64,000 nt of DNA, taken from NCBI GenBank assembly GCA_964503145.1, contig CAZCYV010000009.1, forward strand, positions 47,874-111,873, written 5' to 3'. The translations under genes and the position numbers were made by a program. The notes below the pieces were generated by a model, which was not told where the DNA came from, searched no databases, and saw nothing but the letters and a program-made list of their open reading frames with translations. Shown piece after piece: positions 7,086 through 62,063 of the stretch. This DNA is from an uncultured Anaerolinea sp. (GTDB taxonomy: Bacteria; Chloroflexota; Anaerolineae; Anaerolineales; UBA4823). Position 1 is the stretch's first letter. Every line of letters starts with the position of its first letter.

Positions 7086-10000
7086 ATGTTGAAACAAGTA
7101 AACGCTTCCGAAGAGCGCAACGGTTTGCTGCCCACTCCGCCCCTGCCCGCCGACCTGCCGCCGGTCTCGCTGACGGACAACGCCCGCCAGGTGTTGGTTC
7201 GTCGCTATGTGCGCCGCGGCAAGGACGGCCAGCCTGTGGAGACCGTCGAAGAAATGTTCTGGCGCGTGGCCTACCATGTCGCCGCCTGTGAGGCCGCCTG
7301 GGGCGAGCAGGTGCTGCCCCGCGCCCGCCAGTTTTACGAACTGCTCACCTCCAAGCGTTTCTTTCCCAACTCTCCCACTTTCACCGGCGCCGGGACGCCG
7401 CTGGGTCAACTCGCCGCCTGCTTCGTCCTGCCCATCAGCGACGACATGGGCCGCGATCCCGCCGGCATCTTCCAGACCCTGCGCGATGCGGCCCTGATCC
7501 AGCAAACCGGCGGCGGCAACGGTTTTTCCTTCTCCCGCCTGCGCCCCAAGGGCGCCCTGGTCAAATCCTCCGCCGGCCAGGCCACCGGCCCGGTCGGTTT
7601 TTTGCGCGTCTATGACAAAGCCTTCGGGGAGATCGCCCAGGGTGGCACGCGCAGGGGCGCCAACATGGCTGTGCTGCGCGTCGATCACCCCGATATCGAA
7701 GAATTCGTCACCTGCAAGACCGATGAGAATGCCATCACCAATTTCAACATCTCTGTGGGCATCACGGATGCTTTCATGGAGGCGGTTCGCAACAACGCCG
7801 ACTGGGATCTGCGCTTCCCGGATCTGGATGCCGAGGCTTATCGCGGCTTCAATGGCACTCTGGAGCAGGCTGAGGCCGCGGGCATTCCCATTAAAGTGTA
7901 TAAGACCGTGCGCGCCCGAGAACTGTTCGATAAGATCGTGCGCCAGGCGCACCACAACGGCGAGCCGGGCGTGCTCTTTTTGGATACCGCCAACCGTTCC
8001 AATCCCGTGCCGCATCTGTACCAGTTGGAAGCTACCAATCCGTGTTTCGTCGGTCAGACCCGCATTCCAACTGAATTTGGCCTGCTGACCATCGCCGAGC
8101 TGGCCCAGGCGGGCCTGGACGGCTATATCGCCGCCGATAACCGTGCCCAGGCGCAGGGAATGCCGAACGCCCAACCGGGCGTTGCTCTACGTCCGGCCTC
8201 TCCCGCCTGGCTGACTCGCCGGGATGCGCCGGTGTTTACCATCACTACCCGTATGGGCTATCAGGTTACGGCCACCGCCGATCACCGCTTCTTGACGCCC
8301 AATGGCTATGTGCCTCTCGAACACCTGCGCCCTGGGGATACCCTGCTTCTTCAGAGCGGCGAAGGCCCATGGAGTCGAGAAACCCGCCTCCCCAACTTCG
8401 AAGCGGTGGCAGAGAAGATGGCGGCAATGGCGCTCTCCGGCGATCGAGCCACCGATCATCTGGTACAACGGGCGGATTTCCAGCAGTTGTACGCCAATCT
8501 CCCCACCCGCTGGTCGCATGAGCTTGGCCTGGTGCTGGGCTGGCTGGTGGGGGACGGCTGGCTTTCGGAAACCAGCAATAGCCCAGTCGGGATGGTTTTC
8601 TCCAGCCCGGAAATGTTCGAAATGATCCATCAGCCTTTGGCCGAGTGGTTTGGCCCCGGCCATGTTCACGTGCGCGGCGAGTTGCTCCAGCTCACCTATG
8701 GCCGCTTGCCCTACGAGTTTTTCCGCTCACTTGGCGTACAGCCCGTGCGCGCGCCGGAAAAACGCCTGCCAGAGGCCATCTGGATTGCGCCGCGCCCGGC
8801 GGTGGTTGGCTTCCTGCAAGGTCTGTTCAGCGCCGATGGGACGGTTCAGGTCAACCGGCGCAAGGGAGATTGCACCATTCGCCTCGCCAGCAGCTCAAAA
8901 GGGCTGCTCCAGGATGTACAGATCCTGCTGAGCAATTTCGGCATCCTATCCCACGTTTACCACCGCCGCCCGGCTGGCCGCAAAGCCATGCCCGATGGGA
9001 AAGGCGACCAGGCAGAATATGCTTACCGCCCACAATATGAACTGGTTATCGGCAAAGCAAACCGCGATCGCTTTGCCGAGTTGATCGGTTTTGCCGACGT
9101 CGAAAAGCAAGCTCGTCTTCAGGCGTTCATCTCGGCAAAGAAACGCCGGTCGAACACCGAGCGTTTCACGGATGTAGTAAAGCATATCCGCCCGGCAGGT
9201 CGCGCCGATGTGTATGATTTATCCCAGCCGCAGACCAATAGCCTGATCGCTAATGGCTTCGTGGCGCATAATTGCGGCGAACAATTTTTAGGTCCATACG
9301 AAAATTGCTGCCTGGGCTCGGTCAACCTGGCGCAGCATTTTGGCCCGAACGGCGCGGTGGATTGGGAAAAGCTGCGCCAAAGCGTCGAGCTATCGACGAT
9401 TTTCCTGGATGATGTGGTGGAAGCCAACGCCTACGTGCCGGCGGTGCCGCAGCTTGCCCAGGCTGCACTCCGCGCCCGGCGCATTGGGCTGGGCATCATG
9501 GGGCTGGCCGACCTGATGTACCACGCCGGGGTGCGCTATGGTTCGCCTGAGGGCCAGGAATTCGCCTCCCAGGTGATGGAGTTCATCCGTTACCACTGCA
9601 TGAAGACCAGCATCGCTCTGGCCGAAAAGCGCGGGCCTTTCCCTGCCATCCAGGGCAGCCTGTATGACCCCCAGAACCTACGTTGGCAGCCGCCTCGGCC
9701 CCTGCTGCCTTACACCCGCGATTGGGGGCGACCGGCGGTGGATTGGGGCTCGATCCTGGATGGCATCCGCCGACACGGCATCCGTAACGCCGCTCAGACC
9801 ACCATCGCCCCCACAGGGACGATTGCCACGGTGGCTGGCTGTGAAGGCTACGGCTGCGAGCCGGTCTTTGCCCTGGCCTATATCCGCCACGTGAACGATA
9901 ACGGCAAGGACCTGAAGCTCACCTACGCCAGCCCGGCGTTTGAGAAGGCCTTGCTTGAAGCCGGCATCGACCCGCAGACGCGCCAGACGATCGTTGACCA

Positions 10001-10946
10001 TGTGATGGAAAAAGGCACCTGCCAGGGCCTGGAAGAAGTGCCCCAGGCAATCCGGCAGGTCTTTGTCGTCTCGCAGGATATCACCGCCGAGGAGCATGTG
10101 CGGCTGCAGGCGGCGCTGCAAGCCTTTGTAGATAACAGCCTGAGCAAGACGGTCAACTTCCCTGAGAGTGCCACCGAGGCCGATGTGGCCACGGCTTACC
10201 AGCTCGCCTGGGAGTTGGGCTGCAAGGGGATCACGGTTTACGTCACCGGCTCGCGCCAGAAGGTCGTCCTGGAGACCAAAGCCACCGCCCGCCAGAAGGG
10301 CGAGATCGTCGAGCCTGCCCCTGCTCTCCCATCTGAGCCGAAGCAATTGACCATCTGGCATGACAAAAAGAAACCGCGCCCACGACGCCTGCGCGGCCAC
10401 ACGATCAGCGTGGAGACCCCGCTGGGCAAGGCTTTCGTCACCGTGAACGAGAATGGCGGCGGGCAGCCTTTCGAAGTCTTCGTCAACACTTCCAAGGCTG
10501 GCTCGGACACTGCTGCGGTCTCCGAAGCGATTGGCCGTCTGATCTCCTATATCTTGCGCCTGGCGTCGCCGGTGGCCCCACGCGAGCGCTTGAAGGAAGT
10601 CTGGCGCCAGCTTTCCGGCATTGGCGGTGGGCGTTCGCTGGGCTTTGGCCCCAACCGGGTGCGTTCTCTGCCCGATGGCGTAGCGCAGGCATTGGCCGAA
10701 TACCTGGAAAACTCGAACGCCCAGGAGGATGACGAGGCTCAAGACGGCGATGAAGATGCCGCTGCTGACGGCAATGGCTTCAACATGCTGCAAGAAAGCG
10801 CGCGGCTATCGGACGCTGAGGCAGACGCCGGCTGGGCATCTCAGACGCACAAGATCGGCGATCTATGCCCGGAGTGTGGACAGGCCTCAGTCGTTAATGA
10901 AGAAGGCTGTCGCAAGTGCTATGCCTGTGGATATAGCGAGTGCTGA
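7086..10946 (+). CDS. nrdJ: adenosylcobalamin-dependent (class II) ribonucleotide reductase, intein-containing precursor
   Basis: 1286-aa ORF. The exteins carry class II RNR motifs, including TNP|CGEQ split by the intein. GGGAGAG RBS. The C-terminal tail is CPECG...[12 protein letters not shown]. Confidence 0.88.
8043..9272 (+). mobile_element. intein (410 aa) with a LAGLIDADG homing-endonuclease domain, inserted in nrdJ
   Basis: Starts with Cys (TGT 8043-8045) right after ...EATNP. Ends ...GFVAHN (AAT 9270-9272) and is followed by Cys+1 (TGC 9273). Block-B-like TATADHRF is present. Two LAGLIDADG-like motifs occur: [12 protein letters not shown] (about 8520-8565) and [15 protein letters not shown] (about 8808-8850). 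Confidence 0.88.
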
Positions 10947-12712: not shown

Positions 12713-12751
12713 AGCGATGAACAGCGGCCTACGCGGCCGCTGTTCATCGCT
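12713..12751. terminator. 17-bp perfect hairpin between convergent genes
   Basis: AGCGATGAACAGCGGCC-tacgc-GGCCGCTGTTCATCGCT. It abuts the stop codon of the minus-strand gene. Confidence 0.55.
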
Positions 12752-13746
12752 TAAAACAACATCTTCACTACGGTATCCACGATCAAGCCGAGCAGATACA
12801 GAATACCAAATTCGCGGTTGTGGTAGAACGCCGCAGCGACGAAATAATTCGGCCAGACATCCGGGAAATCGGCTGGCTTTTCGCTGGGCTTGGGGGCGCG
12901 GAAGATCGGGTACACTCTGGCGAAGGCGCGCAGCGCCGCCAGCACGATCAGCAGGACCGGCGTGAAGAAGCGGGTGATCACCAGGTAGATCGTAAAGAGA
13001 TATTGCAGAACCAGCATTCCCACGACGACCACGCGCGAGGTCTTTTCCCCCAATAACACCGGCAGCGTATGAATGCGCCTGGCTTTGTCCATCTCGAACT
13101 TGTCGATGTGCTTGCCGAAAATCACCCCGGTGACTCCCAGCGCGTAGGGTAGCCCGGCAATGACCACGTTCCAGTCCCAGTTGCCGGTGATCACGTAGTA
13201 GCCGCCGCCGATCATCAGCGGGCCCCAGACGATCAGCACGGCAATTTCTCCTAAGGCGATGTACTTGAGCGGCCAGGTGTAGAACAGCACGAAGAACGCG
13301 CCCAGCCCAAGCAAGAGCAACGTCAGCCCGCCGCGGGCGTACACCAGGATCGCCCCGCAGGCCAGGGCGATCAGCCCGGTGACTGCGGCGTAAGTCAGGA
13401 GTTGGCGTTTGGTCATCAGCCCATGCACCAACGGCTGCGGGCCATATTGGGCGCGATAGTAGTTGTCCTGATCCACGCCGCGGGTGTAATCGGTGTAGTC
13501 GTTGAGCAGGTTGTTGGCGGCATGCGCCATGATCAGCCCGAGGGTCATCAGGAACCAATACCAGAAGTTGAACTGCCGGCTCTGGATCGCCAGGATGCCG
13601 GCGATTGCGCCGGAGAGAAAGGTCATGATCAACACCGCGGCGCGGGTGGAGATGAGCCACTTCGAGATCACATCCAGTTGTTCCCACTCTTCTTTGCTGA
13701 CATGAGGGATCACCCGCAGAGCTTTACGCCACATGGCGACGTTCAT
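12751..13746 (-). CDS. UbiA-family prenyltransferase, MenA (1,4-dihydroxy-2-naphthoate polyprenyltransferase)-like
   Basis: Polytopic membrane protein with the Asp-rich motif NNLLNDYTDYTRGVD. The start is taken at MNVAMW (ATG 13746) with an AGGAGG RBS; the track start at 13803 overlaps the upstream gene. Confidence 0.7.
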   Translation of the reverse strand: MNVAMWRKALRVIPHVSKEEWEQLDVISKWLISTRAAVLIMTFLSGAIAGILAIQSRQFNFWYWFLMTLGLIMAHAANNLLNDYTDYTRGVDQDNYYRAQYGPQPLVHGLMTKRQLLTYAAVTGLIALACGAILVYARGGLTLLLLGLGAFFVLFYTWPLKYIALGEIAVLIVWGPLMIGGGYYVITGNWDWNVVIAGLPYALGVTGVIFGKHIDKFEMDKARRIHTLPVLLGEKTSRVVVVGMLVLQYLFTIYLVITRFFTPVLLIVLAALRAFARVYPIFRAPKPSEKPADFPDVWPNYFVAAAFYHNREFGILYLLGLIVDTVVKMLF

Positions 13747-13775
13747 CGAATTGCCTCCTGAACTTTTAGGAAATT

Positions 13776-14954
13776 TTATAAGACGGCGGCCAACGCACGG
13801 CATACCCGGTCGACTTGCTCTTCGCGCATCACGCTGGAGAACGGCAATGCCAGCCCGCGCCGCCCCAGGTCTTCGGTAATGGGAAAATCACCCTGCCGAT
13901 AGCCGAAGCGCTCGACCATATAGGGCTGCAGGTGGATGGGGATGAAATACGGGCGCGCCGGGATTCCCTGCTCGGCCAGGGCGCTGGCCAGGCGATCGCG
14001 ATCTATGCCGGGGGCCAGGCGCACCACATAGACGAACCACGAAACGCGCGTGGTGGTAGGGGCGATCTGCGGCGGCTCGACGCCGGGGATCTCGGCAAGG
14101 CGTTCCCGGTACCATCGTGCGACCTGCTCGCGCCGCGCCAAAAGCTCATCCAGGCGGGCCATCTGCACCCTGCCCAGCGCAGCGCTCATTTCGTCCATGC
14201 GATAGTTGTAGCCCAGGTGAGTGTGTTGCAACCAGGTATCGCCGGGGGCGCGGCCCTGGTTGCGCAGCGCGCGCATCAAGTCGGCGGCCGCATCGTCATC
14301 GGTGACGATCATCCCACCTTCGCCGGTGGTGATCTGCTTATTGGGATAGAAGGCGTACACTCCCATATCCCCCAGCGTGCCCGTTTTGCGCTTCTTGTAC
14401 TCCGCGCCCAGCGCTTCGCAGGCGTCTTCGATCACCTTGAGGCCGTATTCCTGGGCGGTGGCGCAGATCGGGTCGTAATCGGCCGGCTGGCCGAACACAT
14501 CCACCGGCAAGATCGCCTTCAATCTGCCCTGGCCCTGATAACCTTTGCGCGGCAGCCAGCGTTGCGCCGAGGCGGCCCCGTTGGTCAGGTCTGCTGCCGC
14601 CTGTCGGACGCTTTGTGGGTCGATGTTGCCGGTGAGCGGATCGACATCGACGAAAACCGGCACGGCGCGCTCGAACAGCAACACATTGGTCGAGGAGACG
14701 AAGGAAAACGGTGTGGTGATGACCAGGTCATCTTCGGCCACGCCCGCTGCTCGCACGCACAGGTGCAGCCCGGCGGTCCCCGAATTGACCCCGATGGCGT
14801 GCCGCCAGCCGGTGTGCTGGCGGAAGGCCGCTTCGAAGGCCTGGATCTCGCCGCCCATGCTCAGGTTCGGCGTGCGCAAAACCGCCGCCACCGCCTCACG
14901 CTCGGCGTCGCTCAGGTCGGGGGAAGACATCGGGACGGAATACTCAGGAGTCAA
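13776..14954 (-). CDS. DegT/DnrJ/EryC1/StrS-family PLP-dependent sugar aminotransferase (PglE/EpsN-like)
   Basis: 392 aa with the PLP-lysine context FYPNKQITTGEGGMIVTDD and a family-typical N-terminus. Confidence 0.88.
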   Translation of the reverse strand: MTPEYSVPMSSPDLSDAEREAVAAVLRTPNLSMGGEIQAFEAAFRQHTGWRHAIGVNSGTAGLHLCVRAAGVAEDDLVITTPFSFVSSTNVLLFERAVPVFVDVDPLTGNIDPQSVRQAAADLTNGAASAQRWLPRKGYQGQGRLKAILPVDVFGQPADYDPICATAQEYGLKVIEDACEALGAEYKKRKTGTLGDMGVYAFYPNKQITTGEGGMIVTDDDAAADLMRALRNQGRAPGDTWLQHTHLGYNYRMDEMSAALGRVQMARLDELLARREQVARWYRERLAEIPGVEPPQIAPTTTRVSWFVYVVRLAPGIDRDRLASALAEQGIPARPYFIPIHLQPYMVERFGYRQGDFPITEDLGRRGLALPFSSVMREEQVDRVCRALAAVL

Positions 14955-15005
14955 TCGTTTCTCCTTCTGGGGATGGTTGAATGATCGAGATGGATTGTTC
15001 GGGCG

Positions 15006-16136
15006 TCAGCGCCCATTTGGGGGCTTTTCGGGCCAGATGCTTCCTGCTTTGACGATGCTTTTCTCGGGCACGTCGGCCTTGACCGTTGCCCCGTTGCCGA
15101 TGCGCGCCCCCGTGCCGATCTTGACCTGCAGGTTGACCGTGGCGCCCATCCCCACCAGCGCCCCGGAGCCCACCTGCACCTCCCCTGCCAGGATCGCCCC
15201 CGGCGAAAGGTTCACATAATCGCCAAGCACGCAGTCGTGCGACACGATCGCCCCGGTATTGACGATGCTGCCGAAGCCCACCCGGGCCTCGCTGCCCACG
15301 TAAGCCTGGGCAAAGACCTGCACGCCCGGAGCGAGCACGGCGCTGGCCTCCACCACCGCGCTCGGATGCGCCAGCGCCGGGCAGACGAAGCCCGCTTCCG
15401 CCAGCCGCTGAAACACCCGAACGCGGCTTGCCAGGTTGCCGATCCCGCCGACGGCGTTCACGGCCAGGCGCACGCCTTGCTGATAAAGCTCCGGCAAGGC
15501 CTCCGCCCCGCCCAAGACGGGCAGACCCATGATGACCGTCCCTGCCGGGATGCCGTCATCGACGATGCCGACGATCCGGTAGGTGTTCAGTCGCCGCAGC
15601 AGATCGACCAGCGTCTTGCCATGCCCGCCGCCGCCATATACCACGATCGCCTGGGCGTCGAAGGCGCTGGTGGGGGCGGCCAACTCTAGATCTGCGGCCG
15701 ACCTGGGTTGCAAGCTGCGCACAACGCTTTCTGTAACCAGCCGGTCGGTGGGTAAAAGCTCGAGCGGCACGCCCAGTTGTCGCGCCAGCGCCAGGGCCGG
15801 GCGAGTGATGCGCAACCCGGCTGGAAGGTTTTCGTGGCCATCGGCTGTCTGGGCCCCTGCAGGCGTCTGCGCTTCGATGGCAGGCGGCTGCCAGTCGGGC
15901 TGTTCCGCGAGGTAACACAGCACCTCTCCCGCGCGCACCGTTTGCCCCGGCTGGCTGCGCAGACCGACGACGAAGCCCTCTGCCTCGGCGAGCAGGTCGG
16001 CGGTCGATTTGGTCGTCTCCAGGGTGCAAAGCGGTTCGTCCGCCGTCACATATTGACCTTCCTGGACGTGCAGCGCCGCCAGCAGCGCTTCCGGCTCGTT
16101 GGGGTTGAGCAAGGGGATGGTGACCGGAGTGGGCAT
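15006..16136 (-). CDS. fusion protein: lipoyl/biotinyl-attachment domain + E3/E1-binding (PSBD)-like segment + NeuD/PglD-type hexapeptide sugar N-acyltransferase
   Basis: aa 1-77 form an E2-like lipoyl domain with LETTKST; Lys43 is AAA at 16008-16010. aa about 108-140, ITRPALALARQLGVPLELL, are PSBD-like. aa about 163-376 carry VVYGGGGHGKTLVDLL plus left-handed beta-helix repeats with SHDCVLGD. Confidence 0.75.
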   Translation of the reverse strand: MPTPVTIPLLNPNEPEALLAALHVQEGQYVTADEPLCTLETTKSTADLLAEAEGFVVGLRSQPGQTVRAGEVLCYLAEQPDWQPPAIEAQTPAGAQTADGHENLPAGLRITRPALALARQLGVPLELLPTDRLVTESVVRSLQPRSAADLELAAPTSAFDAQAIVVYGGGGHGKTLVDLLRRLNTYRIVGIVDDGIPAGTVIMGLPVLGGAEALPELYQQGVRLAVNAVGGIGNLASRVRVFQRLAEAGFVCPALAHPSAVVEASAVLAPGVQVFAQAYVGSEARVGFGSIVNTGAIVSHDCVLGDYVNLSPGAILAGEVQVGSGALVGMGATVNLQVKIGTGARIGNGATVKADVPEKSIVKAGSIWPEKPPNGR

Positions 16137-16146
16137 ATTTCAGTTC

Positions 16147-17430
16147 CTATTCTCCCAAATCCAGGCTCAACTTGTACACCTGCGGTGCATTGGTAATGAG
16201 ATACACATATCCTTGTAAATCCAGCTTGATATCGAAGGCGTGTCCCTGATAGTCGTCGGGGATTAGTTTGATGTGTCGCCCTGTGTTGTCGAAGACTTCG
16301 ATCCCGTCCTGGTCGAGGATGTAGAGGCGTCCCTGTCCATCCACCGTCAGATCGGCCGGGCTATCCAGCAGCCCGGGGCCATCGCCTTTGCTGCCGAAGC
16401 GATCCACGAAATTGCCCTGTGAGTCGAATTGATACACCTGGTTTTGGCTCTCGTCGAGCAGGTAGATGTTGCCCAGTCCATCCACCGCCAGTCGGCTCAC
16501 CCGCGAGACCTCGCTCTTCTTGACCAAACCTTCGGTAATCTGCGCTTTGCGCCACAGCACCTGTCCATCGGGGCTGATCTTGATCAAATCCAGCTCGCCG
16601 GCAGCGATGTGCAGGGCGTAGATCATGTTGGCCGGGTCGACCGCTACGGCGCCATACCAGGTCTCTGGGAATTGGCGCATGATCTTTTGGAGCAGCGTCC
16701 CATCTGCAGCGTTGTAGATCAGGATGTCTCCGCGGCGCGCGACGAGCAGCCGCCCCTGATAATCGCTTGCCATGTCCGAGATGGTGATCAGGTCGGAATC
16801 GTCGGGTTCGACCTGGATCAGCCTCTGGAACTTGCCGTCTGCGTCGAAGCGCTGCAAACGCCCGTCCTGATATTCGGCGGTGTAGATGTTGCCATTCAGA
16901 TCAAGCGCCAGATGGCGCGCATCGTCGAACTGCCCTGGCCCGCCGCCCTTGGCGCCGAATTGCATGACGAAGCTGTAATCTGGGATGGGGCTGGGAGTGA
17001 TGAGCTGCGGCAGCGCGCTCTCCGTGACCACCGCCGGCAGAGTAGCGGCCTGCTGGCTGATGGATTGGCTGATGACGGCTGCAGTGGTGAACGCTCCGGC
17101 TGCGGCCAGCACGGAGACGACGATCCCGATCACCAGGAAGAAAAGCACCAGCCCTCCGATGATCGCAGCGATGGAACGATGGCTGCGTTGGGCCGCTTCG
17201 TAGGCTTCGCCGGTTTGCGCCTCCGCTGCGCCGGAGAGTTGGATGACCACGGCTGCCTGCCCTGTGCGGGGGTCGGGGCCTTTCTGCTTGCGATACTCTG
17301 GCGGGACCAGCACGTTGCTGCCGCAGTACTCGCAGCGCACAGAGGGATCGTCATCTGGCACCGGTAAAGAGGCTCCACAAGTTGGGCAATGAAAGAGCTG
17401 GGGGGAAGAAGATGGAGTCGTGCTGGTCAT
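16147..17430 (-). CDS. membrane protein: N-terminal zinc ribbon, one TM, extracytoplasmic NHL-repeat beta-propeller
   Basis: CPTCGASL...CEYCGS, then the TM IAAIIGGLVLFFLVIGIVVSVLAAAG. Repeated motifs follow: DxxGNIYxxE, GRLLVA, GNIYLLD, GRLYILD. Confidence 0.65.
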   Translation of the reverse strand: MTSTTPSSSPQLFHCPTCGASLPVPDDDPSVRCEYCGSNVLVPPEYRKQKGPDPRTGQAAVVIQLSGAAEAQTGEAYEAAQRSHRSIAAIIGGLVLFFLVIGIVVSVLAAAGAFTTAAVISQSISQQAATLPAVVTESALPQLITPSPIPDYSFVMQFGAKGGGPGQFDDARHLALDLNGNIYTAEYQDGRLQRFDADGKFQRLIQVEPDDSDLITISDMASDYQGRLLVARRGDILIYNAADGTLLQKIMRQFPETWYGAVAVDPANMIYALHIAAGELDLIKISPDGQVLWRKAQITEGLVKKSEVSRVSRLAVDGLGNIYLLDESQNQVYQFDSQGNFVDRFGSKGDGPGLLDSPADLTVDGQGRLYILDQDGIEVFDNTGRHIKLIPDDYQGHAFDIKLDLQGYVYLITNAPQVYKLSLDLGE

Positions 17431-17503
17431 GGTTAAGTCCTCAGGTACGAAATATGGATAAAAACACCGTCAGCAGCCAATTATATCCCCGATTGCGGGG
17501 CTC

Positions 17504-18517
17504 TTAACGCCGAGAGAGTTCACGGCAAACTTCCAGAATGCGCTCTGTGGAGGGCAGCGTCGCTTGCTCCAAAGGCCCGCTGGCCGGCACGGGCAAATCC
17601 AGGGCTGCCACCCGCCGGGCGGCCCGCAGGCGCGGCCCGAATACCTCCGCCGCCTGGGCGATCACCTCGGCCCCCCAGCCCAGGGTGAAAGCGCCCTCCT
17701 CGACGGTGACCAGACGGCCGGTCTGGGCTACCGAATCCCAAAGCGCATCCAGTTCGAACGGCGCAAGCCGGGTGAGGGCGATCAGTTCGACGAAGATTTC
17801 ATCTTCGTATGCCAGCCGCAGCAGCGCCTGCCTTGCCAGTTCGACCATATAGCCATAGGCGGCCAGCGTGAGCGAGGCCGGCGGAGCGCCGCGCAGCCTG
17901 AGCCTGTAGGACGGCGCAAAGGAGCCTGCTCTGGACAGGGTCTCGATCTCCAATTCCTCATTGGTCGAATCGTCCAGCACCGGCAGCAAATAGAGCAATT
18001 TGTTCTCCACAAACAGCGTCGGGTCTTGTCCTTCCAAGATGGCTTGCAACAGCAACTTTCCTGGCTGGCCGACAGCGCACGGCGCCAGCACCTGCAACCC
18101 TGGCGTTCCCAGGAAGTGCTTTTCCAGGGTCTGACTGTGGGTGGGGCCGTAGCCGCGCCGCCCGCCCATCGGCGTGCGGATCACCAACGGCGCGCGCACC
18201 TGCTCGTTGTACATGTAACGGAACTTGGCCGCGTGGTTGATCACCTGGTCGGCGGCCAGGGTCAGGAAGTCGCCGAACATGATCTCCACCACCGGGCGCA
18301 GGCCGCGTAGCGCCATCCCCGTCGCCACGCCGACGATGCCGGCCTCGGAGATGGGCGTGGTCAACACCCGTTTGGGGTAAGCCTGCGATAGCCCACGCGT
18401 CACCTTGAACGCCCCGCCGTAGGGATCGAGCACATCTTCGCCCAACAGGATCACCCGCTCGTCTTGGGAGAAAGCCTGGTGCAGAGCAGCGTTGAGGGAT
18501 TCGAGGACAGTGGTCAT
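17504..18517 (-). CDS. thiamine-diphosphate-dependent 2-oxoacid dehydrogenase E1 component, beta subunit
   Basis: 337 aa with ILLGEDVLDPYGGAFKVTRGL, ISEAGIVGVATGMALRGLRPVVEIMFGDF and a transketolase-C-like end. Confidence 0.88.
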   Translation of the reverse strand: MTTVLESLNAALHQAFSQDERVILLGEDVLDPYGGAFKVTRGLSQAYPKRVLTTPISEAGIVGVATGMALRGLRPVVEIMFGDFLTLAADQVINHAAKFRYMYNEQVRAPLVIRTPMGGRRGYGPTHSQTLEKHFLGTPGLQVLAPCAVGQPGKLLLQAILEGQDPTLFVENKLLYLLPVLDDSTNEELEIETLSRAGSFAPSYRLRLRGAPPASLTLAAYGYMVELARQALLRLAYEDEIFVELIALTRLAPFELDALWDSVAQTGRLVTVEEGAFTLGWGAEVIAQAAEVFGPRLRAARRVAALDLPVPASGPLEQATLPSTERILEVCRELSRR

Positions 18518-18520
18518 AGG

Positions 18521-19423
18521 TCAGGTGTTTGCCTGTTCGGGGAGCGGGTAGGGGTCGGCCAGGGCAAGCTGGAAGGCGCGCCGAATTTCGGCGTCGATCT
18601 GGGCTTCGATAGACAGACGAGCATCGGCATCCAGCCGCGCAGCCTGGATTTGCAGCGGGTCGCGCTCGCGGCGCAGCCGCTCGATTTCCTCTGGCGGCCG
18701 GGTATCGTCGCCCTTGGAATGCGGCCCGAAACGGCAAGTGTGCAGAATCAGGGCGCAGGGCGACTGCTCCTGGCGCACTTCTTCCAGCAGCGGCCCGGCG
18801 ACGCCGGCGATTTCCTCCACATCGCTGCTGAGCAACTCCCATGCGGGGATGCTGAAAGCCTGGAAGCGGCCCAGCAGGCTGCCCGCCAGCGCCAGTTCGA
18901 TCGGGGTGGTCTGGGCGATGTGGTTGTTTTCGACGACGAACAGGACAGGCGCCCGCCACAAGGAGGCCATGTTCAGCGTCTCGTACACCACGCCCTCGCC
19001 CAGTGTGCCATCTCCCAGGAAGGCCACCGTCGCCGAGCGGTTGCCTTTGAGCTTTTCCGCCAGCGCCATGCCCAGGGCCACCGGCGCGATGCCGCCCTGC
19101 ACGCCGTTGGAATAGAAGTTGCGCCAGTGCAAGTGCTGCGAGCCGCCGCGCCCGCCGCACACCCCGCTGGCTTTGCCCATCAGCTCGGCAAACAAGGCGC
19201 GCGGTTCGCCGCCATAGGCCAGGAAGTGACCGTGGCAGCGATGGTTGCTGAACACGATGTCATCGGCTTGCAAAGCGTGCAGCACGCCGACGGCGTCGGC
19301 TTCCTGCCCCAGATAAGTGTGGGTGGTGCCGAAGAACACCCCCTTGGGGAAGTTCTCCAGCACCGTTTCTTCGAAGCGGCGGATGCGGTACAGCCCGGCG
19401 TAAAATTCTTCTGCGGATGGCAT
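18521..19423 (-). CDS. thiamine-diphosphate-dependent 2-oxoacid dehydrogenase E1 component, alpha subunit
   Basis: TPP motif GDGTLGEGVVYETLNMASLWRAPVLFVVENN. The start is taken at MPSAEEF (ATG 19423, GGGAGA RBS). Its stop lies 3 nt before the E1beta ATG. Confidence 0.88.
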   Translation of the reverse strand: MPSAEEFYAGLYRIRRFEETVLENFPKGVFFGTTHTYLGQEADAVGVLHALQADDIVFSNHRCHGHFLAYGGEPRALFAELMGKASGVCGGRGGSQHLHWRNFYSNGVQGGIAPVALGMALAEKLKGNRSATVAFLGDGTLGEGVVYETLNMASLWRAPVLFVVENNHIAQTTPIELALAGSLLGRFQAFSIPAWELLSSDVEEIAGVAGPLLEEVRQEQSPCALILHTCRFGPHSKGDDTRPPEEIERLRRERDPLQIQAARLDADARLSIEAQIDAEIRRAFQLALADPYPLPEQANT

Positions 19424-19428
19424 GTGGC

Positions 19429-19911
19429 TTATCTCCCGGTATAGATTAACCGGAAGCGCTCGCACACCACCGGCATCTTTACCTGCGGCTGGCGTCCGAT
19501 TTTGGCGCAGACGCGGGAGAAAAACTGCCAGTGCGCCTCTCGCCAGTACCCTAACGACAGGTCGCCTTCGCCCTCGTCGGCTGCAAAATCTGCACCCACC
19601 TCATCATACGGCAGGATGCGCACTTCGCTGGTCTGGATGACGCATTGCGGCTCCCCATCAAAGCGGATGACCACGCTGTAGCCCCCCACCTGGGGCAACG
19701 CCTCGCCCTCCGCTTCGTACTCCCACAACAGCGAGGCGGTAGCGGTCTTCTTGCCCATTACGACCAGCTCGGCCAGCTTATCCGCCAGTTCTCTCGAATC
19801 GCCAAAGAACCACGCCTCGAAGGGCGTCTCCGCTTCGATTTCTGGGTGCGCCTGGCGGAAAGCCTGCCAGAAGGCGCGCACCGCTGATGTATCGGTGAAA
19901 GTCTCACTCAT
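19429..19911 (-). CDS. ASCH-domain protein
   Basis: 160 aa with AWFFGDS...LAELVVMGKKTATASLLWEYE...YWREAHWQFF, typical of ASCH/YqfB-like proteins. Its ATG overlaps the stop of the upstream PglC-like gene (ATGA). Confidence 0.7.
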   Translation of the reverse strand: MSETFTDTSAVRAFWQAFRQAHPEIEAETPFEAWFFGDSRELADKLAELVVMGKKTATASLLWEYEAEGEALPQVGGYSVVIRFDGEPQCVIQTSEVRILPYDEVGADFAADEGEGDLSLGYWREAHWQFFSRVCAKIGRQPQVKMPVVCERFRLIYTGR

Positions 19912-20537
19912 CCCTGTTCCTCGATCTCATTGCCCATGAATTCCTCCGCGGTGGCGTGCCCCGGCTGGCTGATCCCTTCCCGCTTGATCACCTTCCACAA
20001 AGTCATCCCCAGGATGCGCAGATCCAGCCAGAAGGACCAGTGGTCCACGTACCACACATCCAGCCGGAATTTGTCTTCCCAGGTCAGGGCGTTGCGCCCG
20101 TTCACCTGCGCCCAGCCGGTGATCCCCGGCAGCACGGCGTGGCGGCGGGCCTGCTCCGGCGAGTAGCGCCCCAAATACTGCATCAGCAGCGGGCGCGGCC
20201 CCACCAGGCTCATCTCGCCGCGCAGCACGTTGAACAGTTCAGGCAGTTCGTCCAGGCTGCTGGCCCGCAGGAAGCGCCCCAAACGGGTGAGCCGTTCGGC
20301 GTCTGGCAGGAGCTTCCCCTGCGCATCGCGCGCCTCGGTCATCGTGCGGAATTTGTAGATGTAGAAAGGCTTGCCAAAACGACCCGGTCGCAATTGGGTG
20401 AACAGCACCGGCGAGCCGTGCGCCAGCCGCACCGCCAGCGCGATCAGCAACAAGATAGGCGACAGCAGCACTAACCCGATGGCGGTCAGAGTCAGATCGA
20501 AGATGCGCTTGGAATACGGCACGCCTTGAGGCAACAT
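19908..20537 (-). CDS. small monotopic phosphoglycosyl transferase (bacterial sugar transferase, PglC/EpsL/WbaP-C-terminal type)
   Basis: 209 aa with an N-terminal reentrant helix, YIYKFRTM and SLVGPRPLL motifs. Confidence 0.88.
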   Translation of the reverse strand: MLPQGVPYSKRIFDLTLTAIGLVLLSPILLLIALAVRLAHGSPVLFTQLRPGRFGKPFYIYKFRTMTEARDAQGKLLPDAERLTRLGRFLRASSLDELPELFNVLRGEMSLVGPRPLLMQYLGRYSPEQARRHAVLPGITGWAQVNGRNALTWEDKFRLDVWYVDHWSFWLDLRILGMTLWKVIKREGISQPGHATAEEFMGNEIEEQG

Positions 20538-20560: not shown

Positions 20561-23500
20561 TCAGGCGACCGCCTCGCCGACCCGCTCAGCGGGGAGCGCC
20601 GCTTCGACCTGGAGTTTATTCAAGACTTCGTAAAGCGTTTCCATCCAATCCAACGCCTCGTTGAACCCCAGCCACAGCGCCGCTTTGCCCACCCGCACCG
20701 ACGGCCCCAGATCGGGGAGATTCGCAGGCATCATGCCCTCTGGGTAGCGCAGCACGATTTGCTTGCCTTCCACGACGATCGAAGCCAGCCCGGCGCGCTC
20801 CGCCAGCAGCTTGATCTTGAGCTGATACAGCAGGTTCTTCACCGGCTCTGGCGGCGGGCCGAAGCGATCTTTGAATTCCTCCGCCAGCGCATCCAGCTCT
20901 GCTGGCGAGCGCATGTCCGCCATGCGCCGATACAACCCCAGGCGCACGTTCTTGTCAGCCACGTAATCTGAGGGGATTGCCACCGGCAGGGGCAATTCGA
21001 CGTTGACCGGGGTGAGTTGCAGGTTGAGCGTCGAGGGCATCGGCGCCGCCGGCAGCCCTTGCTCTTTGCGCAGGCGGCGCACGGCCTCCGCCAGCAGCGC
21101 GGTGTACAGGTGAAAGCCTACCGCAGCGATGTGCCCGTGCTGGCGCGTCCCCAGGATGTCGCCGGTGCCGCGGATCTCCAGGTCGCGCATGGCGATCGAA
21201 AAGCCGGCGCCGAGTTGGGTGTTCTCGGCGATCGTCTCCAGCCGCTGACGCCCCTCGTAAGTCGGCGATTTGCGATTGTGGCGGAAGAAGTAGGCGTAGG
21301 CGCGCTGCGCCCCGCGCCCCACCCGCCCGCGCAACTGGTAAAGCTGCGCCAGGCCAAAGGTGTCCGCACGGTCCACGATCAGCGTGTTGGCGTTGGGGAT
21401 GTCCAGCCCGGACTCGATGATCGAGGTGCACAGCAGGATATCCACTTCCCCATGCGAGAACTGCTCCATGCGCTTCGCCAGCTCGCTTTCCGCCATCTGT
21501 CCGTGCGCCACGGCGATGCGCGCTTCGGGCACCAGTTGCCTGAGATGGGAGAGCATCGCTTCGATCGTTTGCACCCGGTTATGGACGAAGAAGATCTGCC
21601 CGCCGCGCTCCAGCTCGCGCAGGATCGCCTGTTTGACCAGCTTGGGCGAATACGGGCCGACGTGGGTCACAATCGGCAGGCGCTCTTCTGGCGGCGTGTT
21701 GATGGTCGAAATATCGCGCACCCCGCTGAGGGCCATGTACAGGGTGCGTGGGATGGGCGTGGCGGTCAGGGTGAGCACGTCCACTTCGGTGCGCATCTTT
21801 TTCAACGCTTCTTTGTGCGTCACGCCGAAGCGTTGCTCTTCATCGATGATCAGCAACCCCAAATCCTTGAATTTCACATCCGAGGAGAGCAGGCGATGAG
21901 TGCCGATGACGATGTCCACCTGACCCTTCTCCAGGCGCGTGAGGATCTCCCGCTGTTGCTGCGGCGTGCGGAAGCGCGAGAGCATCTCCACCGTCACCGG
22001 GAAAGCCGCCAGCCGCTGGCTGAAGGTGTTGTAATGTTGCTGCGCCAGCACCGTGGTGGGCACCAGAATGGCGGTCTGCTTGCCGTCCAGCACTGCTTTG
22101 AACGCCGCCCGCAGCGCCACCTCCGTCTTGCCATAGCCCACATCGCCGCAGATCAGGCGGTCCATCGGACGTTTCGATTGCATGTCGCGCTTGACCTCGG
22201 CGATCACCCGCACCTGGTCTTCGGTTTCGATGTACGGGAAGCTGGCCTCCAACTCCTGCTGCCAGGCGTTGTCCTCCGCAAACGCGTAGCCCTCCACCAT
22301 GCTGCGCCTGGCGTACAATTCCAGCAGGTCTTCGGCCACCTCCTTCACGGCTTCTTTGACGTGGGATTTGACGCTCTTCCACTCCGGGCTTCCCAGGCGG
22401 CTCAGCGTGGGCGGACGGTTGTCTGGCCCGACGTAGCGCGTCAGCCGGTCTGCCTGATGGATGGGGACGAAAAGCTGCGCCTCGTCGGCGTATTCCACGC
22501 ACAGGTATTCCCGCTCGACGCCGTCGATGGCGCGGCGCACCAGCCCCAGGTAGCGCCCGATGCCATGATCGACGTGGACGACGTAATCCTGGATCTGCAG
22601 GTCGCTGTAACCCGCCTCCGGCGCTTCGGCCGCGGGTCGGGCGCGCTGACGCGGCTCAGGACGTCGCCAGCCGAAGATTTCGCCGTCGGTGAGCAGGTGA
22701 AATTGGCGGCCGTCTGGAGCTTTGTAGGACCAGCCCTCGCTCAGGCTGCCCTCGATGAAATCCAGCGGCGCCAGATCGGCCGGAGTCCTCTGCTCCTGCC
22801 AAAGTTCGCGCAGGCGCGCTGCCTGCCGCGAGACGATCACGACTCGCTCCTGCGCAGTCAGGCGCTCGCGGATGAACTCCATCACTGGTTTCAGCCGCCC
22901 GGCGAAGCGCGGCCCGGCCGAAAAGCGTTCGGCCAGATCCACCTGTATCTCTGCAGGCGGCACTCCTTCCACTTCGGTTGCGCTTCCATGCCCCAGGTCC
23001 AGCGTGGCGTGGGCGCTCAACGCCTCCTGAATTTCCTCCAGCGTCAGATATGGGATCGGGAAATCCGCCGGAAGCGTGCCCTCGCGGATAGAGTCCTGAC
23101 GCATCGCTACCGCCTGCTCCTCCACTTCGGTGATGGCGTCTGCGAGCGCCTGGCGGTCGTCCAGCACCACCAACGCCTGGCGCGGCAGGTAATCCAGCAG
23201 GCTGGCGGGCATCGGGTGCAGCACGGGGATGTAGAACTCCGAGTTGTAATCTCCTGCTTGTTCGAGGTTCGCCTGCGGGTTGGTCAGAAACTCGCGCGCC
23301 GGGGTGATCAGCAGGCGTTGCAGCGGTCCTACATCGGTTGACTTGACGGTGCGCTGGGTGGCAGGATCGAAACGGCGGATGGTCTCGATTTCGTCGCCGA
23401 AAAATTCCAGCCGCAGCGGTTGCGCCTCCGCCGGAGGCCACAGATCCAACAACCCACCCCGCCGGGCGAATTGCCCCGGCGCGATGACGATGTTGGCGCT

Positions 23501-24013
23501 TTCATAGCCCAGCATGAGGCAGGCGCGCGCCAGGTCGTCCAGTGTCGAGGTCTGTCCCACCTTCAGCGTGCGCGAGGCCTTGAGAAAATCTCGCCGCGGC
23601 AGGGTGCGGGTCATCACGGCGCGCGCTGGCGCCACCAGCAAGGGCGGCCGGGATGGCTGAGGCGCGCCGGGGATGTGGTAGGTAGCCAGCGCTGTCAGGG
23701 CTGCCAGCCGGTCTTGTCGGGTGGACTCGCCCCAGGCCGCCGGTTCATAGAAGAGCGGCGTTGGCTCTGGGAATGGCAGCCGGCGCGCCTCCGGCGCCCA
23801 CAGGCCGAGTTCCTCCATCAGCGTCAGGGCATGGTCGGCGCGGTCGGTGATCAGCAATATTGGCTGGTTCGCCGCCCGCTGCAAGGCGGCCAGCATCGGC
23901 AGGCGCGCCGAGCGGCGCAGCCCCAGCGCAGGGATCGCCCGGCGCGCCTGAAGCGCCTCGAGCAGCGCCCGGGCGGGCGGAAGCAGTTCTTCTAGCAGCG
24001 CGTCCAAAGTCAT
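20561..24013 (-). CDS. mfd: transcription-repair coupling factor
   Basis: 1150 aa with a CarD-like segment, helicase motifs GDVGYGKTEVALRA and DEEQRFGV, and a TRCF C-terminus. Confidence 0.93.
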   Translation of the reverse strand: MTLDALLEELLPPARALLEALQARRAIPALGLRRSARLPMLAALQRAANQPILLITDRADHALTLMEELGLWAPEARRLPFPEPTPLFYEPAAWGESTRQDRLAALTALATYHIPGAPQPSRPPLLVAPARAVMTRTLPRRDFLKASRTLKVGQTSTLDDLARACLMLGYESANIVIAPGQFARRGGLLDLWPPAEAQPLRLEFFGDEIETIRRFDPATQRTVKSTDVGPLQRLLITPAREFLTNPQANLEQAGDYNSEFYIPVLHPMPASLLDYLPRQALVVLDDRQALADAITEVEEQAVAMRQDSIREGTLPADFPIPYLTLEEIQEALSAHATLDLGHGSATEVEGVPPAEIQVDLAERFSAGPRFAGRLKPVMEFIRERLTAQERVVIVSRQAARLRELWQEQRTPADLAPLDFIEGSLSEGWSYKAPDGRQFHLLTDGEIFGWRRPEPRQRARPAAEAPEAGYSDLQIQDYVVHVDHGIGRYLGLVRRAIDGVEREYLCVEYADEAQLFVPIHQADRLTRYVGPDNRPPTLSRLGSPEWKSVKSHVKEAVKEVAEDLLELYARRSMVEGYAFAEDNAWQQELEASFPYIETEDQVRVIAEVKRDMQSKRPMDRLICGDVGYGKTEVALRAAFKAVLDGKQTAILVPTTVLAQQHYNTFSQRLAAFPVTVEMLSRFRTPQQQREILTRLEKGQVDIVIGTHRLLSSDVKFKDLGLLIIDEEQRFGVTHKEALKKMRTEVDVLTLTATPIPRTLYMALSGVRDISTINTPPEERLPIVTHVGPYSPKLVKQAILRELERGGQIFFVHNRVQTIEAMLSHLRQLVPEARIAVAHGQMAESELAKRMEQFSHGEVDILLCTSIIESGLDIPNANTLIVDRADTFGLAQLYQLRGRVGRGAQRAYAYFFRHNRKSPTYEGRQRLETIAENTQLGAGFSIAMRDLEIRGTGDILGTRQHGHIAAVGFHLYTALLAEAVRRLRKEQGLPAAPMPSTLNLQLTPVNVELPLPVAIPSDYVADKNVRLGLYRRMADMRSPAELDALAEEFKDRFGPPPEPVKNLLYQLKIKLLAERAGLASIVVEGKQIVLRYPEGMMPANLPDLGPSVRVGKAALWLGFNEALDWMETLYEVLNKLQVEAALPAERVGEAVA

Positions 24014-28273: not shown

Positions 28274-28274
28274 G

Positions 28275-54608: not shown

Positions 54609-55334
54609 TTAACCTCCCAGCGGGATAGCGACCAGCGTCAGAGCCATCGCTACCGACATCAACAGCAAGCCGGTCTTCCACGGGTTTGCCCCGGTGTATC
54701 TTCCCCAATGGAATCCCGCGATGAAGAGCATCAGGAACGACGCGAGGATCGAGAGGCGAATGGCCAACTCGTAGTTGTGTCGCAGCGCCAAAAGTGGCAT
54801 GAACGAAGGGATCACGGCAACGACCGCCACCAGCACATGCCCCAACGCGCCGGTGAAATCCTCGCTCTTGAAGCCGATGCTGCGCGGCTGGCTGTCCCGC
54901 AGATGGACGAGAATGCTGCGATACAGCGCCTGGCGTTCGTTTTCGCCGGTAATCGGCTCGAGCAAGTAGTCCATGTCCCCGGCGATGACGTCCACCGCCT
55001 CTTGTTCTGTCCCGGCCGCCTGAATGTCTTTCAGCAGGCGATGTCTCTCGCCGCGCTCGAACAAGGAAAGCAGGGCGTACATGATCCCGTCGATGATGCC
55101 CCAGGCCAAAATTGCACCCAGCGCGCCTTTCAACAGCTCATCGACGATGTTGGAGGAGATGGGCTGTTCGAGCGTATCAGAAATCCAGAACAGTTTGAAG
55201 GCCAGTGTAAATGTCAGAAAGATCAGGATGCTGAATATCGTCTCGGACAGCCCATCGATTGGGTCGATCAGGCTTTCCAGGAAACTGTTTTTGGAGCTAA
55301 GCATGCGCCGCAGACGGAAAGTCTTCTCTTTCAT
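54609..55334 (-). CDS. five-TM membrane protein with VIT1/CCC1-like topology
   Basis: Two TMs, an approximately 70-aa acidic helical cytoplasmic insert, then three TMs. Its ATG overlaps the upstream stop (ATGA at 55331-55334). The family call is tentative. Confidence 0.45.
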   Translation of the reverse strand: MKEKTFRLRRMLSSKNSFLESLIDPIDGLSETIFSILIFLTFTLAFKLFWISDTLEQPISSNIVDELLKGALGAILAWGIIDGIMYALLSLFERGERHRLLKDIQAAGTEQEAVDVIAGDMDYLLEPITGENERQALYRSILVHLRDSQPRSIGFKSEDFTGALGHVLVAVVAVIPSFMPLLALRHNYELAIRLSILASFLMLFIAGFHWGRYTGANPWKTGLLLMSVAMALTLVAIPLGG

Positions 55335-61999: not shown

Positions 62000-62063
62000 A
62001 CTCTTAGATCTCCTTGTGATTTTCGAACTTAAAACCCTGATCCAAAGCAGGCATACGAACAAT

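Follow-up and report, generated by a model that had tools for sequence, protein, structure and literature searches.

A lipoyl arm fused to a NeuD/PglD-type amino-sugar acyltransferase and linked to E1 genes: a likely 2-oxoacid-dehydrogenase-like machine for glycan N-acylation

Introduction

To our knowledge, lipoate is limited to a few systems, i.e., the three 2-oxoacid dehydrogenases, acetoin dehydrogenase and glycine cleavage, and the acyl donors that we know of for the N-acylation of sugars are acyl-coenzyme A (acyl-CoA), acyl-acyl carrier protein (acyl-ACP), ATP-grasp or formyl-folate. Here, we describe a locus that would connect the two. It lies on a 64,000-nucleotide stretch of contig CAZCYV010000009.1 from an uncultured Anaerolinea sp. 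(the whole stretch is hereafter the window, and coordinates are window positions) and codes for a 376-aa protein in which a lipoyl domain and a segment resembling a peripheral-subunit-binding domain (PSBD) are fused to a NeuD/PglD-type acyltransferase, with genes for the alpha and beta subunits of a 2-oxoacid dehydrogenase E1 in the same gene run. The E1 and the fusion likely constitute a 2-oxoacid-dehydrogenase-like machine, whose E2 core has been replaced by an amino-sugar N-acyltransferase. As judged from the sequences, the acyl groups that it puts on the amines of cell-surface sugars probably come straight from a 2-oxoacid, not via acyl-CoA.

The closest described systems fall on either side of this junction. 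On one hand, the E2 subunits of the pyruvate (PDH), 2-oxoglutarate (OGDH) and branched-chain 2-oxoacid (BCKDH) dehydrogenases share with the fusion an N-terminal lipoyl domain with its lysine in a turn, flexible linkers and a PSBD or PSBD-like segment, and their complexes share with the module a cognate heteromeric E1alpha/beta from neighboring genes, joined at some loci by a lipoate ligase and an E3. They differ in that the chloramphenicol-acetyltransferase-like catalytic core (PF00198, with the DHRxxDG motif) is absent from the fusion, which instead has a beta-helix N-acyltransferase, and in that a sugar amine, not CoA, is predicted to be the acceptor. On the other hand, PglD, the acetyltransferase domain of PglB, PerB, VioB and WeeI correspond to the C-terminal 210 aa of the fusion, which is a full member of their family with the catalytic histidine and the downstream glycine, and such systems also share with the module the DegT aminotransferase, the PglC-type transferase, the 4,6-dehydratase and NeuB as partners. 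The characterized enzymes of this family among the matches are stand-alone proteins of about 195–220 aa that use acetyl-CoA, whereas the fusion has around 160 additional N-terminal residues and is linked to E1.

Partial parallels to such a rearrangement can be drawn from three further systems. AcoC joins a lipoyl domain to an alpha/beta-hydrolase fold in a catabolic pathway, with the acetyl passed on to CoA; its lipoyl domain resembles that of the fusion, which in contrast has no alpha/beta-hydrolase domain by Pfam, and by analogy it would be a precedent for the swapping of the catalytic domain behind a lipoyl arm. LpxA and LpxD have the left-handed beta-helix and also use, in place of an acyl-CoA, a thioester tethered to a protein (acyl-ACP) as the source of the acyl group, but their carrier is a separate phosphopantetheine ACP and their substrates are lipid A precursors. 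QncN/QncL/QncM and SclQ1-4 carry out the loading of a glycolicacyl group in tetrahydroisoquinoline and scleric acid biosynthesis (PMC6335953). As proposed for the module described here, an E1-like enzyme dependent on thiamine diphosphate (ThDP) loads an acyl group on a lipoyl arm for biosynthesis beyond central metabolism (PMC6335953); however, in the Qnc system an E2-type acyltransferase domain is retained and the acyl group goes on to an ACP that serves a nonribosomal peptide synthetase, and no ACP is listed in the gene tables of the seven genomic contexts of the fusion that we inspected individually. In the full-text literature, many subscription papers excepted, we found neither a lipoyl-NeuD/PglD protein nor E1 genes in bacillosamine or nonulosonic acid pathways.

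A lipoyl domain and a PSBD-like segment on a flexible arm

An earlier, sequence-only reading of the window had taken the N-terminus of the fusion for an E2-type lipoyl domain, and this is upheld by both sequence and fold (Pfam, NCBIfam, PDB sequences, AlphaFold and Foldseek). Residues 4–93 align with the N-terminus of the SucB-type E2 (NF004309, 3e-9), residues 3–80 match the AcoC-type E2 model NF011457 (NCBIfam), and the matches among solved structures are the lipoyl domains of E2 proteins and of the E3-binding protein, e.g., that of Azotobacter vinelandii E2o (1ghj, 1.7e-5), 2dnc and 1gjx. Foldseek searches with the N-terminal part recover E2 models, the biotin carboxyl carrier protein (BCCP) 5gua and the PDH lipoyl domain L2 (3crk_C). 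Lys43, the acceptor proposed in the earlier reading, is indeed encoded by AAA within the context LETTKST and in the AlphaFold model sits in the beta-hairpin turn between strands 35–40 and 45–49; in an alignment of 96 diverse members, with identity down to 28%, both Glu40 and Lys43 are invariant. By these sequence features, the N-terminus is a lipoyl domain with a predicted acceptor lysine in the hairpin turn.

That the barrel carries biotin instead of lipoate, which would turn the module into a carboxyl-transfer system, might be suggested by the scope of PF00364, which spans biotinyl and lipoyl domains alike, and by the BCCP structure among the fold matches. However, the biotinyl motif is A/V-M-K-M, where the fusions have E-T-T/S-K; the best sequence matches are to the lipoyl domains of E2; the ligase encoded beside some of the fusions is of the LplA type; and the partners are E1 and E3 rather than carboxylase subunits. 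Hence, we hold this alternative to be exceedingly improbable.

The second part of the arm had been read as a PSBD, a claim that fares less uniformly. Pfam E3_binding (PF02817) has no match on the window fusion, and the linkers of 3 of 32 relatives match it weakly (E around 0.04). On the other side, a profile of the family linker against PDB sequences returns 23 matches at E<=1, 15 of which are PSBDs of E2 proteins with E-values of 1e-4 to 0.2 (7qjm_A at 1e-4, 6zzl at 5e-4 and 1w4i at 1.6e-3, followed by 2btg, 2eq9_C, 2cyu, 1w4h and 1bal), and the structural model has a confident two-helix element at this point (residues 112–121 and 136–141, with a predicted local distance difference test score, pLDDT, of 85–94). 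The top match, 7qjm_A, is a chain named as an alpha/beta-hydrolase with a PSBD-type segment, and the PSBD alignments shown require a 3-residue deletion in the GxGxxG loop. Since Pfam gave no usable match and the family profile had to be relied on, we call the segment PSBD-like only.

The AlphaFold model of the fusion, which was built on the 96 family members, has a mean pLDDT of 92 and a predicted TM-score (pTM) of 0.63, a value at which the relative placement of the arm and the active site is not informative. From the N-terminus, it comprises the beta-barrel (1–80), a disordered linker (93–100), the two helices, a further disordered linker (146–155) and the NeuD fold. The three folded parts with two disordered linkers between them resemble, in this model, the layout of an E2.

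A complete NeuD-family acyltransferase domain

For the C-terminal part, the family model, the PDB sequence matches and the fold all agree with the NeuD/PglD type proposed earlier. The NeuD model TIGR03570 scores 177.4 bits over residues 164–362 (cutoff 160.8), and the PglD_N domain (PF17836, residues 164–245, E=8.7e-12) and Hexapep repeats (PF00132) are also found in the fusion. Among PDB sequences, it matches the acetyltransferase domain of PglB (4m98, 2e-29), PerB (4ea7, 1.6e-28), VioB and PglD; Foldseek places it on PerB with a target-normalized TM-score of 0.90 and a root-mean-square deviation of 2.3, and also on the PglB domain, PglD, VioB and WeeI. LpxA and LpxD appear among both the sequence and the fold matches of the fusion. 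His300, the predicted catalytic base, is aligned to the DHDC histidine of PerB, identified as His141 via the titles of the entries 4eaa and 4eab, and Gly318, 18 residues further on, aligns with the glycine of PerB ALAG; the equivalent of Gly318 we take to be an oxyanion-hole residue, in keeping with the catalytic roles that we presume for these PerB residues. His300, Ser299 and Gly318 are nearly invariant across the 96-member alignment. By score, fold and catalytic residues, this domain is a true member of the NeuD family.

It is this integrity of the domain that lends some appeal to readings in which CoA is not bypassed. The domain is complete and above the family cutoff, and it superposes on CoA-bound PerB and PglD with target-normalized TM-scores of 0.84–0.90 and no sign of a lost cleft. 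Thus, the beta-helix domain might pass the acyl group from the E1-loaded arm first to CoA, bound or free, in the manner of an E2, and then to the sugar; in a variant of this relay, cellular acyl-CoA would be used and the arm would merely boost its local supply, with the system coupled to E1 and CoA retained. Against such a relay, it introduces an extra step without an evident benefit, we know of no NeuD/PglD member that acylates CoA, and a strict, ancient joining of the arm to the transferase, as seen here, would be expected of direct delivery. We therefore see the relay as unlikely, and accord its variant the same low standing.

An E1 pair probably equipped for loading a lipoyl arm

The motif for thiamine pyrophosphate (TPP) binding in E1alpha, GDG...NN, is intact, as had been noted from the sequence, and is strongly conserved in the E1s of the family. 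The closest solved structure of E1alpha is human PDH E1alpha (1.4e-38), and those of E1beta are 1ik6 and 1um9_B. Nevertheless, E1alpha scores 229.3 bits on TIGR03182 against a PDH equivalog cutoff of 393.85, and E1beta scores 208.5 bits on NF006667 against a PDH equivalog cutoff of 321; as both fall below these cutoffs, pyruvate is a candidate rather than an established substrate.

E1-like pairs related to those of PDH have been proposed to act in the pathways of branched and antibiotic deoxysugars, and the sub-cutoff scores, which set this pair apart from a housekeeping PDH E1, would also fit such a role: the pair would act on the sugar itself, e.g., by adding a two-carbon branch to a 4-keto sugar, and the barrel would be an unmodified structural or docking domain. 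This is hard to reconcile with the invariance of Lys43 and Glu40 at the tip of the hairpin and with the lipoate ligase and E3 encoded beside the fusion in several loci. It also meets an objection from the active site of the E1s themselves. The histidine of the E1alpha HSK motif is invariant in all 51 sequences encoded beside fusions, as are the cofactor-activating glutamate (ISE) and His127 (THSQ) of E1beta in all 60. In the Geobacillus stearothermophilus E1, H128beta and H271alpha act in reductive acetylation; in every E1, the equivalent of H128beta is required to donate a proton in the half-reaction that acylates the lipoyl group, and ThDP enzymes do not universally need it (PMC2663715). The residues given in that paper are catalytic ones and not determinants of specificity. 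An invariant histidine of E1beta that is specifically needed for the acylation of lipoamide (PMC2663715) argues against a purely carboligating, sugar-branching role of these E1s, which we accordingly view as improbable.

The two subunits are encoded by separate genes in the Anaerolineae; in distant clades they form a single polypeptide of around 640–690 aa encoded directly upstream of the fusion. This fused E1 occurs in Bacteroidota-like and other distant clades (e.g., L085, L087–L090 and L094–L096), and among the loci of our metagenome scan (see below) that have an E1, it is found in 37 of 65, the remaining 28 being split or partial.

Phyletic spread and gene neighborhoods

A word-indexed search recovered at least 120 clusters of fusion proteins at 63–100% identity, all with PF00364 and PF17836, and an exhaustive search of representatives gave 643 clusters (at 50% identity) with E<=1e-30. 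The best 150 of the latter include about 100 full-length three-part proteins with 29–60% identity. The source labels of members name Chloroflexota/Anaerolineae, Omnitrophota, Eremiobacterota, Bacteroidales, Chitinophagaceae and Polaribacter; those of the clusters that we looked up are metagenome-assembled genomes only, with no cultured strain of known glycan among them. Where database entries have names, these are plain "NeuD/PglB/VioB", "EpsM" or similar sugar acetyltransferases. Hence, the fusions are a large, old and multi-phylum family that is generically annotated. Two relatives of 552 aa (P0027 and P0053) have PF04480 and PF18741 in addition.

For the survey of gene neighborhoods, the window proteins served as tblastn queries against the best 80 genomes of species representatives (Chloroflexota throughout), and 80 metagenome loci from a scan seeded with the distant clade were analyzed with a protein panel. 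Across the 80 species loci, the neighbors of the fusion are E1beta (74), E1alpha (66), DegT (48), PglC (41), UbiA (30), Mfd (24), the NHL protein (10) and the ASCH protein (3); with three partial matches included, E1beta adjoins the fusion on its upstream side in 77, the others (L019, L049 and L067) being without E1. In the metagenome loci, an E1 gene lies immediately upstream of the fusion in all 60 that are assessable, i.e., that have at least 700 nt upstream of it, and PglC and DegT are found near the fusion in 14 and 29 of the 80, respectively. An E1 gene also accompanies the fusion in six of the seven inspected contexts, which include Omnitrophota and Bacteroidota-like contigs; for instance, it adjoins the fusion in L084 and L085, and in L086 there is none in the available flanks. 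Co-conservation of the fusion with E1, a point on which the sequence-only reading had made its proposal depend, thus holds almost without exception, in several phyla and among members of as little as about 30% identity. The invariant core of the module is the E1 together with the fusion, and these neighbor counts mark the ASCH and NHL genes as lineage-specific passengers.

The remaining neighbors recurrently belong to the synthesis of glycans. In L081, the module lies inside a nonulosonic acid cluster with a dehydratase, DegT, NeuB, a NeuC-like epimerase and a CMP-transferase. In L087, a complete bacillosamine-type set is formed by the fused E1, the fusion, PglC, DegT and a PglF-like dehydratase; the dehydratase, aminotransferase, acyltransferase and PglC are all present in L087, L105, L109, L150 and L160. 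At an omnitrophotan locus (L082), the fusion is accompanied by a plain PglD-like gene of 205 aa, and NeuB and three DegT genes are also present. In the window, the bacillosamine-type set consists of the aminotransferase, the acyltransferase (i.e., the fusion) and PglC, with no 4,6-dehydratase within the 64 kb.

These neighborhoods bear on the possibility that the module is a variant complex of central metabolism, in which the beta-helix has taken the place of the E2 core and makes acyl-CoA and the glycan genes around it are incidental. The similarity of the E1 to PDH E1 and the otherwise housekeeping content of the window would be in line with this. It accounts poorly for the recurrence of glycan genes across phyla (DegT in 48/80 and 29/80 loci of the two surveys, together with PglC, 4,6-dehydratase, NeuB and CMP-transferase), and for the conservation of the nucleotide-sugar-binding PglD_N and of the catalytic histidine. 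We consider such a complex very improbable.

Lipoate ligase, E3 and the missing E2 core

In several loci, the genes that a lipoyl-dependent machine would call for are found beside the fusion: both LplA and E3 in L083, L111, L132, L133 and L142, and LplA alone in the short locus L130. The loci with an E3 lie inside polysaccharide or nonulosonic acid clusters; in L083, the order is E1beta, E1alpha, LplA, E3 and the fusion, followed by glycosyltransferases and a flippase. Pfam identifies the catalytic and C-terminal domains of LplA and the Pyr_redox_2 and Pyr_redox_dim domains of E3. The E3 of L083 contains GGTCLNRGCIPTK and HAHPTLSE, which we take to be two signatures of dihydrolipoamide dehydrogenase, for the redox disulfide and His-Glu.

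An E2 core, in contrast, was not found in the window or in the loci scanned. The absence of both an E2 core and an E3 from the window, as remarked in the earlier reading, is borne out by Pfam, tblastn and a motif scan: Pfam scans of 30 further open reading frames (ORFs) of the window gave no E2 core, E3 or LplA, and tblastn of the window with E3, LplA, 4,6-dehydratase and NeuB queries found none of them. The DHRxxDG motif of the E2 core occurs in no real ORF of the window or of 167 loci (2.19 Mb), and PF00198 has no match in the fusion or among the seven inspected contexts. As it lacks the catalytic core by which an E2 is defined, the fusion is not one.

A predicted reaction path and the nature of the acyl group

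On the basis of the assigned domains, the conservation of the catalytic residues, the linkage of the genes, and the ligase and E3 encoded beside some of the fusions, we infer a path of lipoylation, loading by E1 and direct transfer. A lipoate ligase would lipoylate Lys43, and the ThDP-dependent E1, kept close by the PSBD-like segment, would decarboxylate a 2-oxoacid and reductively acylate the lipoyl arm. The arm would then swing into the active site of the left-handed beta-helix in the NeuD/PglD-type domain, whose fold family forms trimers in solved structures. There, His300 is predicted to deprotonate the 4-amino group of a nucleotide-linked 4-amino-4,6-dideoxy-hexosamine, the presumptive product of the DegT aminotransferase, such that the acyl group could move from the dihydrolipoyl thioester to the sugar amine with the release of the N-acyl sugar. 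An E3 dihydrolipoamide dehydrogenase would re-oxidize the arm. In the window, the PglC-like enzyme might then load the N-acylated sugar onto polyprenyl phosphate, and in other lineages the product may feed the synthesis of nonulosonic acids of the legionaminic/pseudaminic type.

As the E1 comes closest to PDH E1, our default guess for the acyl group is acetyl, with pyruvate as its source; a group other than acetyl is no less plausible. One hint in the latter direction is the coexistence in L082 of the plain PglD-like gene and the fusion, as if two acyltransferases installed different acyl groups; another is the upkeep of E1, and sometimes of LplA and E3, where acetyl-CoA could serve. Under this more specific proposal, which we put forward tentatively, E1, a trimeric beta-helix core with lipoyl arms and E3 would form a self-sufficient, CoA-independent 2-oxoacid:amino-sugar N-acyltransferase complex that installs a non-acetyl group, such as a glycolyl, lactyl, glyceroyl, propionyl or branched acyl group from a 2-oxoacid or ketose. 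Its target, suggested with similar reserve, might be the 4-amino group of bacillosamine-type sugars, equivalent to N7 of legionaminic and pseudaminic acids. The papers on the nonulosonic acids of Tannerella forsythia make no mention of E1, ThDP or lipoyl genes, and provide no tie to N-glyceroyl or N-glycolyl decorations.

Several points weigh against a machine that delivers acyl groups from 2-oxoacids to sugars. The NeuD domain is full length and has the normal look of a CoA-using enzyme, so that the CoA-binding cleft may well be retained, and if the acyl group is simply acetyl, the selective benefit relative to acetyl-CoA is not obvious. As for the PSBD, its assignment is weak, given the E-values (1e-4 to 0.2) and the shortened loop. 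Four fusions (those of L019, L049, L067 and L086) are without an E1 neighbor in the available flanks, and E3, lipoate ligase and the 4,6-dehydratase were not found within this 64-kb window.

Organization of the locus and its surroundings

The seven genes of the locus (Table 1) are all on the minus strand, in the order previously given, and each ORF has the domain match expected of it; they are flanked by mfd on one side and a UbiA-family prenyltransferase gene on the other. The ATGA overlap of PglC with ASCH and the gaps of 3 nt (E1alpha/E1beta) and 10 nt (NHL gene/fusion) were likewise recovered. The description of the array as tightly spaced holds only in part; the gaps of 73 nt between E1beta and the NHL gene and of 51 nt between the fusion and DegT mean that some are not tight. 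The E1alpha ORF is present, with its most likely start at the ATG at 19423, 5 nt past the ASCH stop, rather than at the GTG at 19465. The DegT protein scores 288 bits on the PseC model and 282 bits on the LegC-family model of NCBIfam, each under its cutoff.

Table 1. Positions of the genes, domains and sites discussed in the text, in the window and in related loci
Feature	Sequence	Position	Strand	Evidence or remark
PglC-type polyprenyl-phosphate phosphoglycosyl transferase, small, 209 aa	window	19908-20537	-	PF02397 full length, E=1.5e-66
ASCH-domain protein, 160 aa	window	19429-19911	-	PF04266, E=4.6e-24
E1alpha, ThDP-binding subunit	window	18521-19423 (mechanical ORF to 19465)	-	PF00676, E=8.7e-50
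E1beta, pyrimidine-binding and C-terminal domains	window	17504-18517	-	PF02779 and PF02780
Zn-ribbon/transmembrane/NHL beta-propeller protein, 427 aa	window	16147-17430	-	NHL, SBBP and DUF5128 matches
Fusion protein, 376 aa: lipoyl, PSBD-like and NeuD/PglD-type parts	window	15006-16136	-	Pfam, NCBIfam, AlphaFold, Foldseek
Lipoyl domain, aa 1-80	window	15897-16136	-	PF00364, E=2e-10, aa 16-76
Lys43 codon AAA, predicted lipoylation site	window	16008-16010	-	codon verified; context LETTKST
PSBD-like two-helix segment, aa 105-142	window	15711-15824	-	family profile against PDB; AlphaFold helices
NeuD/PglD/PerB-type domain, aa 163-370: Rossmann-like nucleotide-sugar-binding part and left-handed beta-helix	window	15027-15650	-	TIGR03570, PDB, Foldseek
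His300 codon, predicted catalytic base (SHDC)	window	15237-15239	-	aligns with PerB DHDC histidine
DegT/PseC/LegC-type sugar aminotransferase, 392 aa	window	13776-14954	-	PF01041, E=5e-113
UbiA-family (UbiA/MenA-like) prenyltransferase	window	12751-13803	-	flank
mfd	window	20561-24013		flank
Promoter-like sequence in E1beta-NHL gap	window	17480-17507	-	TTAAGA, 16 nt, TATAAT; 10/12 matches
Class II ribonucleotide reductase-like ORF, 1286 aa	window	7086-10946	+	translation, by eye
Two CrtI-like flavin amine-oxidases, Rieske oxygenase alpha subunit	window	26696-31018	+	
Two large secreted-type proteins	window	55331-57859 and 59573-62062	-	repeated META and PKD domains
LplA and E3 beside fusion	L083	1-4825		
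LplA and E3 beside fusion	L111	2713-8105		
LplA and E3 beside fusion	L132	3-5044		
LplA and E3 beside fusion	L133	7930-13408		
LplA and E3 beside fusion	L142	8037-14616		
LplA beside fusion	L130	414-1936		short locus
Fusion	L082	10001-11155		
Plain PglD-like gene, 205 aa	L082	12409-13026		
Fusion	L086	10001-11038		
Zn-ribbon/transmembrane/NHL gene	L163	1843-3204		

In addition to its beta-propeller, the NHL protein has a CxxC...CxxC motif and a hydrophobic helix that are visible in the translation; a gene of the same type occurs in one metagenome locus (L163). That the ASCH and NHL proteins belong to the machine was also weighed and discarded, as only 3/80 and 10/80 related loci have them. The ASCH gene is a lineage-specific accessory outside the core module, and the NHL gene is an accessory insertion between E1beta and the fusion. 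Besides a promoter-like sequence, the 73-nt gap between E1beta and the NHL gene contains CCCCGCAATCGGGG, a short inverted repeat; the number of promoter-like sites in this region does not exceed chance, with 2 seen versus 1.1 expected. The UbiA/MenA-like prenyltransferase gene directly after DegT has the same place in 30 of the 80 Anaerolineae loci, and mfd is the other flank in 24 of them.

The remainder of the window is ordinary chromosome, with murB-ddl-ftsQAZ, a class II ribonucleotide reductase, mfd, pth, topA, dprA, ffh and ATP-binding cassette exporters. The ribonucleotide reductase-like ORF has an apparent intein-like insertion, as read by eye from a translation that includes ...FVAHNCGEQ.... 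Elsewhere, two adjoining CrtI-like flavin amine-oxidase genes are followed by one for the alpha subunit of a Rieske ring-hydroxylating oxygenase, possibly a cluster for the modification of carotenoids, and two genes code for large secreted-type proteins made up of META and PKD domains.

Biological implications

If the proposed machine is real, then a multi-phylum module would join the field of lipoate with that of sugar N-acylation, and a further class would be added to the short list of lipoate-dependent systems. One immediate consequence concerns annotation: where they have names in the databases searched, the fusions are labeled as plain sugar acetyltransferases, and these labels would call for correction. 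Knowledge of the enzymes that modify nonulosonic acids was described as scarce in 2017 (PMC5378307), and the module would be a candidate source of orphan N-acyl groups on the surface sugars of bacteria. It would also offer a means of equipping glycans with acyl groups of choice from inexpensive 2-oxoacids.

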